Positions 23,370-36,506 of a stretch of 41,073 nt of DNA are shown here, piece by piece. Source of the stretch: a virus (taxonomy: Duplodnaviria; Heunggongvirae; Uroviricota; Caudoviricetes); IMG/VR virus record IMGVR_UViG_2537561979_000009, positions 1 to 41,073 of that record. The stretch is one strand, 5' to 3'. Every line of letters begins with the position of its first letter. The first letter of the stretch is position 1. A program made the position numbers and the translations under genes. The notes below the pieces were generated by a model, which was given only the letters and a program-made list of their open reading frames with translations, was not told the DNA's origin and made no database searches.

Positions 23370-24176
23370 TTATATACGCCCTTTCAGATAAGTCATCCCC
23401 GGCTGCATCCAGTCAACAGGTGCTTTCTTAAAGGGCGTATTATCAAAATCACGCAGAAGAGCCTCCAGCACAACTGCATCATTGTCAGCACCACTGGCCA
23501 TCATTTCAATCTCAGCTGCTACCTGCAGATATCCCATGCAACGACCAATGCGCTTCATCAGCCCCTGCTTTTTATTGTTCTTCAGGTAATCAATGGCAAA
23601 TTCAATGAGCGCCTCACTATGCTGGTGCGATGGCGGTGTTAATTTCCCATTTTCTGAGATGGTTATTTTCCCGCCATCTCCGTATACAACAAAGGATGGC
23701 CGGTTACACTCCCATTCCTGATCTTTATCAGGTGCAGACGCAATAAAATAACGTTTATTTCCTTCCTCTCCGGCACTTTTAACCGTAATGGAGTACTCAG
23801 ACTGCAGACAAGACGCCTCTTTTTCTGACCGCAGTGTTGACGGCGGCATCTTCAGAGAACCAGTAATTCTTCCCGGTAGCTTTCCTTTGTAGGTTATCCA
23901 CACATTCTGCGCCTCTAAAATTATGGGGCGCTTTTCCGGCGACAGCTCATCCCCTTCACATAACCCGGCAGCAACATCCAGGAAGACCTGTCTGATGCTC
24001 CTTCTGGCTGCTGCCTCATAAAACTCCAGCGCGGCACCTTCAACACGGTCCAGCGAGATGTCCAGGTCAAAAATTTCACCGTCAAAGCGTTTTTTGTCCC
24101 GTAACGCTACAGTTACCGTAACTTTATTCTCAAAATTGCGGATCCCTTTCACAATCAGTTCATAGTTTTGAGTCAT
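23370..24176 (-). CDS. Hypothetical protein, 268 aa, inserted between holin and endolysin
   Basis: Start 4 nt after the holin stop, same strand as the lysis genes; no recognisable motif. Confidence 0.6.
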   Translation of the reverse strand: MTQNYELIVKGIRNFENKVTVTVALRDKKRFDGEIFDLDISLDRVEGAALEFYEAAARRSIRQVFLDVAAGLCEGDELSPEKRPIILEAQNVWITYKGKLPGRITGSLKMPPSTLRSEKEASCLQSEYSITVKSAGEEGNKRYFIASAPDKDQEWECNRPSFVVYGDGGKITISENGKLTPPSHQHSEALIEFAIDYLKNNKKQGLMKRIGRCMGYLQVAAEIEMMASGADNDAVVLEALLRDFDNTPFKKAPVDWMQPGMTYLKGRI

Positions 24177-24180
24177 TGAA

Positions 24181-24396
24181 TTACTCTCCCCGTGCAGCCT
24201 TGCGACGGTCCTCTTTTATCTTGAAGTACAGATTCGTCAGATAAGTCAGAAAGCCCAGTGCCAGACTCCCCAGCACACCAATAGCAGCCCACTGTGAAGG
24301 ACTGACCTGATCAATCCACTGCAAAAACCAGTACCCGGCACTACCTGCTGAGGTGCCATAGGCAACACCCGTTGTTAACTTATCCATGGATTTCAT
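24181..24396 (-). CDS. S: Class II holin (pinholin, S21-like) with dual start motif
   Basis: 71 aa, MKSMDK... with Met1 and Met4, two TM segments, charged C-terminus; GGAGG Shine-Dalgarno. Confidence 0.85.
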
Positions 24397-24726
24397 AGCA
24401 ACGCCTCCGCCAGTAACGGATTGCGTAGTTCTTGTATTAGGAAGGGGAAAAAGAAGGCCGCAGCATAATTGTCACTGATGAATTCACGACAGCCAGTGGC
24501 TACGGCTCGGTTTGGGTTGTGGTGGCTGGCGCAGGTCTCCGGCTTGCGGTTATTTCAGACTCTCACGGGCGTTTAATTGCCCCGCCGGACAGATCTTTTC
24601 CGCAATAGCTGCAATGTCTTTCGCGCATCAGCCTGAGCATTCACCACAACGATAAGAGCACTGCGCGGCACCTTTCACCAGTTCCGCGAGGTCTGCGGGT
24701 TCAGTGCTCTTACCTGTTGTGCAGAC

Positions 24727-24749
24727 AAAAAAAACCGCACGGCGGCGGG
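24727..24749 (-). terminator. tR'-like terminator of the late leader RNA (short GC hairpin plus U8 on the minus strand)
   Basis: Minus strand CCGCCGCCGUGCGG then UUUUUUUU, followed by GTCTGCACAACAGGTAAGAGCA..., which matches the lambda sequence just downstream of tR' as I recall it. Confidence 0.6.
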
Positions 24750-25200
24750 TTTAAGTTGTGTGGCGTAGGAACCACTCTTACCATGATATGCATACTTTTA
24801 CGATCGTAAAGTGTTTGTTCATACCCTGCATGCTGCATGATTCACCCCACAGACAATCTCTGGATTGTTGCGACGTTTGGCAAGATACAATTAAAGATTA
24901 TGCATTCATCTATGCACGTATTTTTCTTCAAAAGTAATGTCTTTATTAAGGTTATATAAATAACTCATAAACCCAAATAATTAAATATATTTAGCACTTC
25001 TAATAAAAAAGATTGATCTTAATTTTCTGAGTGAAAGATAGCCATCTATTTATTAGTTTGCATGACTTCTTATTTTGTGATAGTGGTCACATATAAAGAA
25101 TCGGACTCCTTAATTTTCCTTGTATACATTATACACAGAAATTAAATTTTCATCCTGATAGCATTTTGTCGTCCAATTAACTCCCACCAGAGGATAAAAA

Positions 25201-26307
25201 ATGAAAAATTTAACAGTGGCACTTTCTGCTGTAGCAGCATCAGTATTTCTGGCAACGTCTTCAAATGCAGCAGAAATATACAATAAAGATGCAAACAAAG
25301 TGGATTTATACGGTAAAGCAGTTGGTTTACATTATTTTTCTTCTGATAAGGACCAAAACGGAGATCAGACTTACGCACGCCTTGGATTCAGAGGTGAAAC
25401 CCAAATAAATAATTATATTACTGGTTTTGGTCAGTGGGAATATAATTTCCAGGGGAACAACCCTGAAGGGGATGGAGCTCAAACTGGAAACAAGACTCGC
25501 CTGGCATACGCTGGTCTGAAGCTTGCAGATGCTGGCTCTCTTGATTATGGTCGTAACTACGGCGTGGTGTACGACGCATTAAGCTACACTGACGTCTTCC
25601 CGGAGTTTGGACCTACCGCAGCGCAAGACGATAACTTCTTCGTTGGTCGTGTAGGCGGTGTTGCCACATACCGCAACACTGACTTTTTTGGACTGGTCGA
25701 TGGGCTTAGCTTTGCAATTCAGTATCTGGGAAAAAATGAACGCAAGGATAAACCAGATACTTCAAACGGAGAGGGTGTAGGTGGCTCTGTCAGCTATGAA
25801 TATGAAGGATTTGGTTTTGTCGCAGCATACGGCGCTGCTGATCGTACTAAAAATCAGAAAAAGGCTGAGCTTGGTAAAGGGAAAAAAGCTGAACAGTGGG
25901 CCACCGGGGTAAAATATGACGCAAATAATCTGTACCTGGCTGCCAGTTATGGTGAAACAAATAATACCCGTGCAATATCGTATGGTGATAATATTTCAGG
26001 AGTGGCGAATAAAACCGAAGATTTCACTGTTGTGGCACAATACCAGTTCGACTTTGGATTACGCCCGTCTCTTGCTTATACCCACTCTAAAGCAAAAAAC
26101 CTTTCATCCAGTACTGATATTAGTAAAAAACATGATGACGGATATATTGAAAAATTCGTTGAAGTCGGGGCTTCTTATTACTTCAACAAAAATATGTCTA
26201 CATACATAGATTACAAAATCAATATGCTCGATAAAAATAAATTCACTGAAAGAACAGGAGTATCAACCGACGATATTGTCGCTGTTGGTCTGGTTTATCA
26301 GTTCTGA
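25201..26307 (+). CDS. Outer membrane porin, OmpC/OmpF/PhoE family (prophage Lc/NmpC-like lysogenic conversion porin)
   Basis: 368 aa, signal peptide, ends in the beta-barrel motif ...VGLVYQF; AT-rich upstream region. Confidence 0.85.
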
Positions 26308-26451
26308 TTTGTTCTGTAAGAATATGCCGGGGGAGTGAGAACTTTTCTGGCATATAAAGTGGTGCCCTCATGCCACTGCAAAACGTTGGACAGTACTTAA
26401 CTTTTCCAACGAACTTTCTGTTATTTATTAACCTTTTTGGTTTTTATGCTT

Positions 26452-26478
26452 GGGCGCTTTGCGCCCATTTTTTATTTT
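26452..26478 (+). terminator. Rho-independent terminator (GGGCGC-TTT-GCGCCC then ATTTTTTATTTT)
   Basis: Perfect 6-bp GC stem and T-run on the plus strand, about 145 nt after the porin stop and just outside the Q 3' end. Confidence 0.7.
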
Positions 26479-26485
26479 GTACGCC

Positions 26486-26923
26486 TTATATCCCTGCCCT
26501 GGAGGACGCAGTTTTACGACGTATCGAATAATTTGTGCTCACATATCGATCCATCTCAAGGCGAACATCCAGCATCATCAACATGCCATCGATAACTCCT
26601 TCCGCTTTCTGCAGGCGCTTACCAACGCAAGTATCCGAACATCCATGTTTCCTTGCTAACTTCATGAACGTAATCCCATATACGTAGTAATCAACCAGCA
26701 TGTCATGCATATCGGCGTTGTTCTTTTTCAGGCGAGCCATACAACCACATATAATCATCGCGTCATCATCGGAACACTGCGATCGCGATTTTACTTTTGA
26801 CGGTATCAGCCCCTTAAATCCGGCGGCAATGCCTGACCATTCCACGTCTTCATGATTATTTGCGACCCATGCCCCCCAACGTTCAAGAACCATTTGAATA
26901 TCACGCATCAACTTTCTCCACAA
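26486..26923 (-). CDS. Q: Late gene antiterminator Q (QuuD/phage 21-type family)
   Basis: Cys-rich ~140-aa protein ([14 protein letters not shown]... [11 protein letters not shown]) between the nin-like region and lysis genes; alternative starts at Met6 and Met11. Confidence 0.65.
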
Positions 26924-26925
26924 AA

Positions 26926-27921
26926 TCAGGCCAGCACACCAGTTGCCAGCGCACGATCGATAAAACGAAATATCAGCTCCAGCTGGGAGCCATACTTCAC
27001 TTCAAATGCCACGGTATCCGCATGCAGCTCGTCGTGATGCTTTCTGCACAAAGGCAACACAAAGAGATCATGCGCTTTTTTACCCATTCCCCCCTGACCG
27101 TGGCCTATCAGATGGTGGGGATCATCAGCAGGCTTTCCACAACATGCACACGGCTGCGTCTTAACCCAGCGCGTGTACTTTTCATTAACCCAGCGGCGAC
27201 GTTTTGGGCGTAACATAAAAGACTCCGGCGACTCCGGATCCACTTTCAGCGCCAGCACCTTTTTCGCTTTATCCTGGATGATGCTGGTGGCAGGAACCGA
27301 AGGCACAAGGTCACTTTCCCGGGTGACAGATGGCACAACAGGCTTCGGTAATCTCAGTGCCTTACGGGCTGCACTTTCCGGTAAGGCATCCGCCAGATCA
27401 TTACGAACCAGCCACCAGCACAGTTCCGGCATTGTCACAACGTGACTGTCATCAAAACCGAGATCCCGACGCACGACAGACAACACCCAGCGGGCACAGT
27501 TATCCGTTGCCATTGATTCCAGCCGTTCCGTGAACTGATCGCGCAGCTGGTTATCGCAGTGCCAGCACAGACGGATTGCGCCCGGCGCGTGTCGCATTGT
27601 TGTCATGTTCTCGCTGTGCCAGTCGGAATGAGGCCACTGGCAGCCTTTTTCACGAAGTAACCAGCTTTCAAGACATTCCACGCCACCAGCACGACGGATC
27701 ACTGCCTCATTGCGGAACACGGCCCGAACGGCAGGATCATCCGCCAGCGGTTGTGATGCCGCCGGAACGGCACCACTGGCGAAAGATGAATAACGTTCCG
27801 GCTCAGGCTCCAGCAGGACACGCCCCTGCATAAACAGGGGCATCAGCTCTGAACCTGGCCTGAACAATACGATCCCCATACGCGGGGCAATTTCAGGGGT
27901 CAGTAGTGCTCTCACGGTCAC
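26926..27921 (-). CDS. DUF968-like prophage protein (YdfU-like), 331 aa
   Basis: C-terminal [21 protein letters not shown] ... [10 protein letters not shown] Cys/His cluster; position immediately upstream of Q. Confidence 0.45.
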
Positions 27922-35681: not shown

Positions 35682-36506
35682 ATGTCTCAGAACTTAGACG
35701 CAACCGCAATTGATCAAATCCATGCCCTTATTTCTGCTCAGGGGGTTAATGAAATTATCAGTAAGATTGGTGCCGATGCTGTGGCATTGCCTGAGAATTT
35801 CCGCATTCATGATCTGGAAAAATTTAATTTAAATCGCTTCCGTTTCCGTGGTGCGCTTTCCACTGCCAGCATCGATGACTTTACCCGTTATTCTAAAGAT
35901 CTTGCAGATGAAGGCACCCGCTGCTTTATCGATGCCGATAATATGCGAGCCGTCAGTGTGCTTAACCTGGGTACTATTGATGAACCAGGTCACGCAGATA
36001 ACACCGCCACTCTCAAACTGAAAAAGACAGCACCGTTCTCTGCCCTGTTGTCTGTTAACGGCGAGCGTAACTCCCAGAAATCACTGGCAGAATGGATTGA
36101 AGACTGGGCCGACTACCTTGTGGGCTTTGATGCTAATGGTGACGCCATTCAGGCAACAAAAGCTGCTGCGGCAGTCCGTAAAATCACGATTGAAGCAAAC
36201 CAGACCGCTGATTTTGAAGATAATGACTTCAGCGGTAAACGCTCCCTGATGGAATCTGTCGAAGCGAAGACCAAAGACATTATGCCAGTGGCATTTGAAT
36301 TTAAATGCGTTCCGTTTGAAGGTCTGAAAGAACGTCCGTTTAAATTACGCCTCAGCATTATCACTGGCGATCGTCCTGTACTGGTTCTGCGCATTATTCA
36401 GCTGGAAGCGGTGCAGGAAGATATGGCTAACGAATTTCGTGATCTGCTTGTTGAGAAATTCAAAGACAGCAAAGTAGAAACCTTTATTGGTACTTTCACC
36501 GCCTGA
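35682..36506 (+). CDS. Early-left accessory protein, 274 aa (YfdQ-like, DUF2303-type)
   Basis: Length and position match the CPS-53 yfdQ arrangement as I recall it; unverified. Confidence 0.5.

Follow-up and report, generated by a model that had tools for sequence, protein, structure and literature searches.

The window analysed here is a stretch of 41,073 nucleotides from a virus of the Caudoviricetes (positions 1 to 41,073 of IMG/VR record IMGVR_UViG_2537561979_000009). Between the Q antiterminator gene and the first gene of the late operon, it carries a porin gene on the opposite strand, a putative late promoter (pR') with its terminator (tR'), and a leader. The features are as follows.

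26486..26908, minus strand: Q antiterminator gene, 140 aa from the ATG at 26908
24880..26477, plus strand: porin unit (moron) between Q and pR', on the strand opposite to Q
stem 26451-26467, then a T-rich tail, plus strand: intrinsic terminator in the porin 3' UTR (consensus scan)
25201-26307, plus strand: porin coding sequence (Pfam Porin_1, E 2.9e-125)
24880-25200, plus strand: AT-rich porin control region, 19-33% GC, upstream of the gene
24810-24805, minus strand: predicted pR' -35 hexamer TTTACG, inside the palindrome
24796..24810, minus strand: perfect palindrome, TTTACGATCGTAAA plus A, a candidate Q-binding element that contains the -35
24783..24788, minus strand: predicted pR' -10 hexamer TATCAT, 16-nt spacer from the -35 (promoter scan 9/12)
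24760..24782, minus strand: start region GGTAAGAGTGGTT, with the predicted start at A24776
24775-24760, minus strand: small 5' hairpin GUGGU/GCCAC, within the conserved start region
24752-24735 (hairpin) and 24734-24727 (U8), minus strand: tR', predicted intrinsic terminator (terminator scan)
24181..24396, minus strand: class II (S21-type) holin, first gene of the late operon (Pfam Phage_holin_2_1, E 5.5e-35)

Q ends the early rightward operon, where it is preceded by the nin-type genes RusA, DUF968/HNH and KilA-N. The protein matches Pfam PF06530 (Phage_antitermQ) over residues 1-118 with the full profile covered (E 3.9e-53), and is 81% identical to the Q of H-19B across 124 aa; its tail past about residue 124 is absent from most relatives. 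Q21 and the DLP12 protein QuuD are also PF06530 matches, and by this profile the window Q is a member of the Q21/Q933W family (PF06530; 10.1101/651190). At the other end of the locus, the holin gene is followed on the same strand by a DUF1327 gene and by genes for lysozyme, Rz and the Nu1 and gpA terminase proteins. All late genes lie on this strand and make up a complete late operon that includes the terminase and structural genes.

The porin terminator on the plus strand (TGGGCGCTTTGCGCCCA then TTTTTTATTT) stops a few bases short of the Q stop codon, and the 179 nt separating the stop codons of Q and the porin are the porin 3' UTR and terminator. DLP12 and LH50-c have homologous sequence in the corresponding interval. 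The order of Q followed by an opposite-strand porin is also annotated in E. coli TUM1886, LH50-c and K-12 DLP12, while no porin separates Q and pR' in H-19B or VT1-Sakai. As expected of a moron, the unit has its own promoter region and terminator, lies on the opposite strand, has a distinct composition and is absent from relatives at this place. Three different porin units (the window type, DLP12 nmpC and the L074 type), as well as other cargo, end directly upstream of the -35. Judged from these alignments, the porin unit fills the interval from about codon 124 of Q to position -36 of pR', displacing the promoter module by 1.68 kb. A relic of the Q 3' end was sought upstream of the window -35 and discarded, as pairwise alignment gives scattered matches only and, with the frame read by eye, just the promoter-encoded L-R-S-stop is common with H-19B Q.

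The promoter and the terminator were each detected independently by consensus scans. The initial annotation had placed pR'/qut immediately 5' of the hairpin and some 1.7 kb away from Q, and homology bears this out: window segment 24820-24725 is 81% identical over 96 nt to the annotated pR'/qut/first terminator of VT1-Sakai and H-19B, the Q proteins match (81%), and DLP12 carries the corresponding module. Scanning the minus strand gave a sigma-70 promoter that lines up with the one annotated as pR' ('putative late promoter') in VT1-Sakai and Ss-VASD. Hits to the segment came from 351 phage records, for the most part Stx phages, and fall at the Q/pR' junction. The Q stop codon, whose last base is 26486, and the -35 hexamer at 24810 are 1676 nt apart; the porin unit fills this space, and nothing promoter-like lies beside Q. 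The annotation had also put pR' inside the AT-rich stretch shared with the porin promoter. This was mistaken, as pR' sits in DNA of 44-46% GC, about 70 bp outside the porin control region.

Homologous modules, 29 of them distinct, were aligned. TTTACGWWCGTAAAA is invariant in all 29, and the following 7 nt vary. In the -10 hexamer, positions 1, 2 and 6 (T, A and T) are invariant and positions 3-5 are variable, and in the start region a G followed by TAAG is invariant and AGTGGTT is nearly so. As read from the alignment, this conservation is the pattern of a promoter, a protein site and a terminator. The 15-nt palindromic element occurs once in the window. Of 80 related viral contigs with this Q, 73 have the palindrome TTTACGWWCGTAAA as a single copy, at distances of 32 to 3026 nt past the matched part of Q, with a chance expectation of about 0.04 exact matches in that much DNA (arithmetic). 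By this distribution, the palindrome is tied to Q and not to the position of Q.

Transcription probably starts at about A24776. In Sakai Stx phages the mapped PR' start lies 258 nt from the mapped tR' 3' end (PMC7547250), a distance that puts the start 7 nt after the -10 in L005, and A24776 is the equivalent position in the window. By analogy with Q21, whose site sits between the -35 and the -10, the palindrome TTTACGATCGTAAAA, the -35 included, is most likely the Q-binding element. The two do not resemble each other; the candidate is an inverted repeat and the solved Q21 element is a direct repeat (10.1101/651190). No convincing sigma-dependent pause element was found in the start region or further downstream in the 29-module alignment. 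The invariant TAAGAGT spans the predicted start, and within it AAGAGT (A at 2, T at 6) sits at -3 to +3 as a pause candidate only.

The hairpin and U8 that had been reported at about 24727-24749 are present, at 24752-24727 on the minus strand. This intrinsic terminator, the one expected after pR', is the sole terminator-like site that the consensus scan returns on that strand from the porin gene to the holin gene; no second one was found ahead of the holin gene. It aligns with the first annotated VT1-Sakai 'putative rho-independent terminator for pR' transcript'. Across the 29 modules its stem and T-run are conserved and its loop is variable, with about 95% of cells paired. Neither here nor in the small 5' hairpin are there compensatory changes in these modules, so pairing is neither backed nor contradicted. 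An RNA ending at tR' would be about 45-50 nt long. The hairpin is modest, the 57-nt leader folding at -15 kcal/mol (z = -1.45). In the Sakai phages, the stable PR' product runs to a second terminator, 258 nt beyond the start (PMC7547250), which means either that the homologous first hairpin stops transcription incompletely or that its short product escaped capture.

Taken together, it is highly probable that 24810-24727 on the minus strand is a lambdoid late module made up of a constitutive sigma-70 pR', the loading site of the prophage's own Q, and tR'. Without Q, polymerase would stop at the hairpin and U8, yielding a short leader RNA. After induction, Q made from the early rightward operon would diffuse to the remote pR', where it is most likely recruited by the palindrome and would load onto promoter-proximally paused polymerase. 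The Q-loaded polymerase would then read past tR' and an untranslated leader of about 330 nt into the holin, lysozyme, Rz, terminase and structural genes. Since Q is a diffusible DNA-binding protein recruited by a site at the promoter (10.1101/651190), remote action in trans requires no new mechanism. The features in the sequence, their homologies and the pattern of conservation are observed directly; promoter activity, the start, binding of Q to the palindrome and the efficiencies of termination and antitermination are predictions for the window, modelled on relatives. Experiments on the homologous promoter of Sakai Stx phages have documented both the PR' start and read-through under Q control (PMC7547250). 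The DLP12 lysis cassette is reportedly under the control of a Q-type antiterminator, and the DLP12 literature also invokes control of the region by RpoE and Hha (PMC7918800).

Textbook Q cassettes have pR' drawn directly after Q (10.1101/651190), and this layout could apply here too, with pR'/qut at about 26480-26310 on the minus strand, the porin gene read antisense and the hairpin a downstream terminator that Q-modified polymerase would pass. An N- or Q-modified polymerase could traverse the porin gene in that direction, and there is an antisense promoter-like site inside it, at 25440-25412. However, the consensus scan found no promoter-like site on the minus strand of 26310-26486, which is porin 3' UTR and terminator as in DLP12 and LH50-c. 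The motif of the Q family is also absent beside Q, its only copy in the window being at 24810-24796, and in relatives it follows the cargo and not Q. We consider the adjoining position extremely improbable, and the displacement a feature of layout, not of mechanism.

Two other readings accept the promoter but differ on its use. In one, which we regard as very unlikely, the 24810-24783 promoter is mainly host-controlled, expressing the lysis cassette independently of Q under envelope stress (RpoE), and the hairpin acts as a simple attenuator. In its favour, DLP12 and the window have homologous modules, and the SRRz/Rz1 operon of DLP12 reportedly responds to RpoE, Hha, pH and osmolarity (PMC7918800). 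In inducible Stx phages, however, late and stx genes are transcribed from this same module in a Q-dependent way (PMC7547250), and it co-occurs strictly with the Q type. In the window it precedes a complete late operon, not a lysis cassette alone; nor are the Q and host modes mutually exclusive. In the other, the short constitutive pR'-tR' RNA is the main product, acting in trans in the lysogen as an sRNA like StxS, with antitermination secondary. In Sakai Stx phages, constitutive transcription from PR' yields a terminated RNA that binds Hfq and functions as an sRNA (PMC7547250), and the first 20 or so transcribed nt with the small 5' hairpin are very strongly conserved. Q loading explains the conserved start equally well, though, and the 74-nt StxS comes from the 3' part of a 258-nt transcript, a part with no counterpart in the window, whose homology to VT1-Sakai goes no further than the first terminator (L005 position about 995). 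No Rfam family matches either, and this reading is unlikely.

The late module so read has its closest characterised relatives in the Stx phages H-19B, 933W and VT1-Sakai, in which Q is 81% identical and the -35, palindrome, -10, start, small hairpin and terminator are all homologous. Q belongs to the same Pfam family and presumably loads by the same mechanism. In these phages pR' overlaps the last Q codons, whereas in the window it is 1.68 kb off, behind the porin unit. They also carry cargo (tRNAs, stx) past pR', and their StxS precursor is ended by a second terminator at +258; in the window, homology extends only to the first terminator, after which comes a leader of the lambda/CUS-3 type. 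The porin, being on the opposite strand and upstream of pR', would lie outside the Q-controlled late transcript, and so would not be a late product as stx is.

The displaced layout is ordinary, being the same in K-12 DLP12 (quuD - nmpC - essD rrrD rzpD), with the order Q, opposite-strand porin and holin. Between nmpC and essD lies the promoter and terminator module that DLP12 shares with the window, TTTACGTACGTAAAA ... TATGCT ... GTTAAGAGTGGTTAC ... terminator, and the porin 3' UTR abuts Q likewise. The DLP12 porin is 58% identical to that of the window, and nmpC is interrupted by IS5. Upstream of the -35 the DLP12 sequence is unrelated to the window, and it is without the lambda-like leader element. 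DLP12 is defective, whereas the window has a complete late operon. Phage 21 shares PF06530, a terminator within about 50 nt of the start, and a homologous holin and S-proximal leader, although its Q is about 30% identical to the window Q. Phage 21 has pR' directly after Q and tRNA genes beyond the terminator. The Q21-binding element, known from solved structures of the Q-loading and Q-loaded complexes, is a direct repeat ATTGAGCA AATGAGCA between the -35 and -10, unrelated to the window palindrome.

For prophage annotation, these assignments would fix the late transcription start and the terminator that Q must overcome. In the Q933W/DLP12 subfamily, the interval from about codon 124 of Q to the -35 appears to take cargo up to about 3 kb with the cognate promoter kept; cargo insertion has been placed downstream of pR' in the literature (PMC4104026). 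Programs that seek pR' solely beside Q would miss displaced promoters. The palindrome is also a testable candidate binding site for the medically relevant Q933W-type antiterminators.

The initial annotation had likened both the hairpin and the following sequence to lambda tR' and the S leader. From the T-run onward the likeness holds, with three collinear blocks of the lambda tR'-to-S flank at 86-91% identity, the nested repeat included, as the alignment to lambda that it called for bears out. These are window 24734-24701 with lambda 44774-44807 (31/34, E 5e-9), 24663-24639 with 44844-44868 (22/25), and 24529-24454 with 44926-45003 (67/78, E 2e-21), so that lambda shares 44774-45003 in part. 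The hairpin stem does not follow this pattern: by alignment, tR' is of the 933W/DLP12 type, not lambda tR'. Lambda Q is of another family (PF03589), nothing upstream of the T-run aligns to lambda, and lambda pR', qut, the 194-nt 6S RNA and the tR' stem have no counterpart in the window, where the leader RNA is predicted to be far shorter, as given above. The DNA past tR' is, from these alignments, a different mosaic piece, joined exactly at the T-run. Its features are listed below.

24518..24721, minus strand: lambda-like leader element, apparently decayed and tRNA-like (lambda blocks, covariation in relatives, folds)
24721-24702 with 24663-24645, minus strand: outer stem P1 (the nested repeat)
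24648-24642 (TGTGGTG) and 24524-24518 (CACCACA), minus strand: closing strands
24638-24623, minus strand: hairpin A, followed by a variable region
24543-24525, minus strand: hairpin B
24397..24529, minus strand: S-proximal leader, including the holin ribosome-binding region, common to lambda, phage 21 and CUS-3

The description of the S leader as lambda-like also stands in part. The S-proximal leader is 86% identical to lambda 44926-45003, but it and the holin are of the phage-21 type, matching phage 21 at 83% over 346 nt, from just after its tRNA-Thr through S21. The leader element is 95% identical to the leaders of CUS-3 and HK629. Its inverted repeat (TAAGAGCACTG, 24712-24702, and CAGTGCTCTTA, 24663-24653, minus strand) extends to a stem of about 19 bp (CACAACAGGTAAGAGCACTG, 24721-24702, with CAGTGCTCTTATCGTTGTG, 24663-24645). 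The 141-nt stretch with the hairpin and repeat folds at -53.3 kcal/mol (z = -3.2), and none of 200 shuffles folds as well.

In its intact form the element would consist of a 5' hairpin followed by a tRNA-like cloverleaf, and its stems covary in relatives. The cloverleaf has a closing helix of 7-9 bp (UGUGGUG/CACCACA), a 5-bp hairpin with the loop GGCUGA, a variable arm of 4-183 nt and a second 5-bp hairpin with the loop AGAUCAGCA, and the two loops are complementary (GCUGA/UCAGC). The element is found in at least 120 viral contigs and 178 phage records, its hosts including lambdoid, P22-like, P1-like, Lastavirus and Ackermannviridae phages, and usually lies directly after a terminator or tRNA genes. 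In the window, hairpin B has the loop AGACCTGCG instead of AGATCAGCA and one stem mismatch, and by this comparison the window copy is degenerate. We tentatively suggest, while thinking it somewhat doubtful, that the nested repeat forms the outer stem of a structured RNA which is widespread but listed in no catalogue, and of which lambda and the window have decayed copies. If so, the intact element could, for instance, signal RNA processing, mimic a tRNA or mark the junction of a mobile module; it offers a lead, apart from the late module, to what may be a new phage RNA.

Rfam gave no match to window 24100-27000 at E up to 1, and thus no known sRNA or leader family, nor to the element in 13 loci with intact copies. 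ARAGORN found no tRNA or tmRNA in the whole window, although related prophages have tRNA genes at this place, and a full-text literature search for the element core sequence returned no relevant paper. CACAACA motifs in the element suggested the anti-sRNAs AgvB/AsxR as its identity. Each of these is 51-60 nt long, has a promoter and a terminator of its own, and is encoded downstream of cargo genes (PMC4104026); they were rejected on the architecture so described, the element being without a terminator. The phi80 M3 RNA, an RNase P substrate, was rejected as a relative, since M3 is annotated in the phi80 record as the oop homologue and lies at 36229-36288, well away from the late leader. A small protein gene was judged unlikely, given that the stems covary without keeping frame and that most copies are unannotated and intergenic. 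In phage Tyrion a 53-aa ORF is annotated over the element, with the peptide SAL-VVVNAQADA shared.

The window is a lambda-like prophage with its early-right and late genes on the minus strand. An opposite-strand porin gene lies between the gene for the late antiterminator Q and a stretch that, judged by its sequence, appears to be an ordinary, non-canonically placed Q-dependent late regulatory module, comprising the promoter pR', a candidate Q site and the terminator tR'. The initial annotation's observation of a late terminator with lambda-like flanking sequence away from Q is confirmed, and its interpretation is supported. In the closest E. coli record, TUM1886 (98.8% identity over 91% of a 3-kb query), the annotation likewise runs antiterminator Q, other-strand porin, class II holin.

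Gene order around the late regulatory module (minus-strand genes read from 30300 down to 18400)
Before Q, minus strand: Dam methylase, RusA, KilA-N protein, DUF968/HNH protein
26908-26486, minus strand: antiterminator Q
25201-26307, plus strand: porin gene
24810-24727, minus strand: pR' to tR' module
24396-24181, minus strand: S21-type holin
After the holin, minus strand: DUF1327 protein, lysozyme, Rz, Nu1, gpA terminase

The gene between holin and lysozyme (23370-24176, minus strand) encodes 268 aa, of which only residues 1-100 match DUF1327 (YdfR family). Annotated YdfR genes of relatives encode ~100 aa, so this is an extended or fused version.

The hairpin with U8 that had been reported is present (hairpin 24752-24735, eight U at 24734-24727), and is the sole minus-strand terminator-like site between porin and holin in a consensus scan. 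The promoter had been expected just upstream, with its position left open; a promoter scan locates it at 24810-24783 (minus strand; TTTACG, 16-nt spacer, TATCAT). It is not in the AT-rich stretch, as had been suggested, since GC content there is 44-46% and the AT-rich stretch is ~70 bp away. No promoter-like site adjoining Q was found on the minus strand by the scan. The region's best sigma-70-like match (25440-25412, minus strand; TTCCCA, 17-nt spacer, TATAAT, 10 of 12) is antisense within the porin CDS and adjoins a terminator-like site at 25467-25448; it may reflect chance or an antisense transcript.

Sensitive BLAST of window 24990-24730 against 50,697 phage records matched 351, mostly Shiga-toxin phages, and among the matches listed all align to window 24820-24730 and, within their records, sit at the 3' end of Q. 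In VT1-Sakai the matched stretch bears the annotations 'putative late promoter', 'putative Q-utilization' and 'putative rho-independent terminator for pR' transcript', and the late promoter and the final codons of Q overlap. Aligned pairwise with the window, the VT1-Sakai stretch matches almost perfectly between the -35 and the end of the T-run (81% over 96 nt). Window Q belongs to PF06530, named the Q21/Q933W family by Yin et al. (10.1101/651190), as do Q21 and DLP12 QuuD, and lambda Q to PF03589. As window Q also shares 81% identity with H-19B Q across 124 residues, the prophage encodes a cognate antiterminator for this promoter type, which is also that of the Stx phages. DLP12 of E. coli K-12 carries the same module (TTTACGTACGTAAAA ... 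TATGCT ... GTTAAGAGTGGTTAC ... terminator) between the divergent nmpC porin gene, which carries IS5, and essD, 2.9 kb beyond quuD. The order Q, porin, S is the same in DLP12 as in the window, and presumably also in phage PA-2 (lc gene).

Of 80 viral contigs encoding relatives of window Q, 73 contain TTTACGNNCGTAAA a single time, against a chance expectation of ~0.04 matches in that DNA (12 specified bases); among the seven others, five have <1.3 kb of sequence past Q. Counted from where the matched part of Q ends, the distance to the copy is 32 to 3026 nt, in classes of 32-51, 148, ~500, 609, 731, 792-899, 1074, 1531-1579, 1679 and 2326-3026 nt. In an alignment of 29 distinct modules, TTTACGWWCGTAAAA is invariant, the seven spacer bases after it are variable, and only positions 1, 2 and 6 of the -10 hexamer are invariant. 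Around the start, G and TAAG are invariant and AGTGGTT nearly so, followed by a small GUGGU/GCCAC hairpin and a terminator in which stem and T-run are conserved and the loop varies. This pattern would fit a promoter that contains a protein-binding site and is followed by a conserved initial transcribed region and then a terminator. A covariation test on the 29 modules found no compensatory changes in the stems, and covariation is therefore uninformative on them either way.

The invariant element forms a palindrome of 14 bp without mismatches, TTTACGATCGTAAA (24810-24797, minus strand), one half of which is the -35 hexamer; only its central dinucleotide changes among relatives (AT or TA), so that the palindrome is kept. 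Since the Q-binding element of phage 21 is located in the promoter, as a direct repeat between -35 and -10 (10.1101/651190), the palindrome is proposed as the candidate Q-binding element of this Q subfamily, and, unlike the Q21 direct repeat, is a candidate site for a Q dimer. No sigma-dependent pause element was identified in the module, AAGAGT across the start being the only -10-like candidate.

The sequence from Q to the module is a self-contained unit of AT-rich control region (19-33% GC), porin gene and 3' UTR, the last closing with a plus-strand terminator that stops a few bases short of the Q stop codon. Three different porin units are found in this interval in different contigs: the window type, nmpC and one at 59% identity. 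Non-porin cargo includes a Q-strand antirepressor-like gene, interrupted by transposase-like ORFs in one contig, and a 181-aa protein encoded on the opposite strand. In each case unrelated cargo sequence reaches right up to the -35, and Q-side homology among relatives ends at ~residue 124, just past residue 118, where the Pfam domain match stops. Thus, the cargo site is bounded by ~codon 124 of Q and pR' position -36. Type-I-restriction-like ORFs are also among the cargo of the contigs with Q relatives (L010-L089), the Q C-terminal tail changes with the cargo, and cargo length in this subfamily ranges from 0 to ~3 kb (window interval 26486-24810). The porin 3' UTR (26308-26477, plus strand) contains its own terminator as well as several hairpins and lies where DLP12 has the IpeX sRNA. 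It has blocks of sequence in common with the equivalent DLP12 interval and no Rfam match.

Q is a diffusible protein that recognises a DNA element at pR', joins the polymerase while it is paused near the promoter, and then moves along with it (10.1101/651190). Q would reach the distant pR' by diffusion, and adjacency of gene and site would not be required. The proposal that Q acts in trans at a distance is therefore consistent with the normal mechanism on an unusual map, and is supported. Lying upstream of pR' on the opposite strand, the porin gene is outside the Q-dependent late transcript, and the consequence of the displaced pR' is organisational. One paper places cargo downstream of pR' (PMC4104026), and another describes Q as 'followed by' pR' (10.1101/651190). 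No literature statement placing pR' beyond the porin gene in such prophages was found; the placement can nevertheless be deduced directly, and the DLP12 lysis cassette has already been described as Q-controlled (PMC7918800).

In Sakai Stx phages, the PR' start lies 258 nt from the tR' 3' end by differential RNA-seq and Term-seq (PMC7547250). As the second annotated terminator of the VT1-Sakai locus (L005) ends at ~1202, a 258-nt transcript would start at ~945, an A seven nucleotides after TATCAT. By homology with this base, the window start is probably A24776. The first VT1-Sakai hairpin is conserved at ~+27 to +55 (L005:971-1000) and the second terminator is at L005:1174-1202; the published stable PR' product ends at +258 despite the conserved first hairpin (PMC7547250). 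Because that paper has the stable precursor running 258 nt, it implies that the first hairpin, the homologue of the window hairpin, is an incomplete stop. The window hairpin is modest, yet its U tract is longer, and a consensus scan of the window found no second intrinsic terminator before the holin gene. The ~330-nt untranslated leader could be a Rho target.

The suggested likeness to the lambda tR' flank holds from the T-run on, where the window and lambda 43800-45700 share three collinear blocks in a pairwise BLAST comparison. It does not extend to the hairpin stem, which, with all upstream sequence, has no counterpart in the lambda comparison.

Collinear blocks shared with lambda, beginning at the T-run
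24734-24701, minus strand: lambda 44774-44807, 31/34 identical
24663-24639, minus strand: lambda 44844-44868, 22/25 identical
24529-24454, minus strand: lambda 44926-45003, 67/78 identical

Phage 21 is a better match than lambda from 24523 down through the holin gene (83% over 346 nt). The nested repeat TAAGAGCACTG / CAGTGCTCTTA is present as described and extends into a ~19 bp stem (24721-24702 with 24663-24645); the 141-nt stretch with hairpin and repeat folds better than 200/200 shuffles. This stem is the outer stem of a structured leader element (24721-24518, minus strand).

The leader element is widespread, being found in several phage groups. At least 120 stretches of viral contigs carry its pattern in a pattern scan, and BLAST with window 24745-24620 hit 178 phage records, among them Klebsiella, Salmonella and Enterobacter phages and one entitled Escherichia phage P1. 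Intact copies (e.g. L113:1085-1300, L093:440-800, L095, L096, L139) have, in order, the long stem, UGUGGUG AAU, a hairpin GCGCA-GGCUGA-UGCGC, a variable region of 4-183 nt, a hairpin GCCGG-AGAUCAGCA-CCGGC, and CACCACA. The two conserved loops are complementary (GCUGA/UCAGC, read from the sequences). The long stem comes in over a dozen unrelated sequences, all of which pair; 28 of 103 unique copies reach at least 18/20 ungapped pairs, and 33 of 103 beat at least 199/200 shuffles. When copies are aligned without gaps, with the loop motif as sole anchor, both sides change in four of the second hairpin's five pairs and in one pair of the first. The closing helix, its 5' strand fixed by the search pattern, varies only by wobble-preserving changes. 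The observed covariation score is reached by 0/500 shuffles, and pairing is 95.9% versus 24-53% in slid controls. In minimum-energy folds, a hairpin precedes a cloverleaf. Thus, the element is predicted to be a 5' hairpin plus a tRNA-like cloverleaf with strongly covarying stems. It has no Rfam match, and a full-text literature search with its core sequence found nothing relevant. In the window copy the second hairpin is degenerate and loop complementarity is lost; the lambda copy is more decayed.

Most neighbouring ORFs and 15/15 nearby tRNA genes run in the same direction as the element, and in phage 21 a real tRNA-Thr is in its place. Three different Q modules, those of lambda, CUS-3 (21-type pR'/tR') and the window (933W-type), are joined to it exactly at the T-run. 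The terminator-element junction may be either a preferred recombination joint of Q and lysis modules, or a terminator and element working together. The 5' arm starts with CACAAC, and at least 11 unrelated terminator hairpins stop 0-3 nt short of it (L106, L109, L120, L123, L124, L127, L157, L162, L165, L174 and L183, loci with copies of the element; window 24727-24721).
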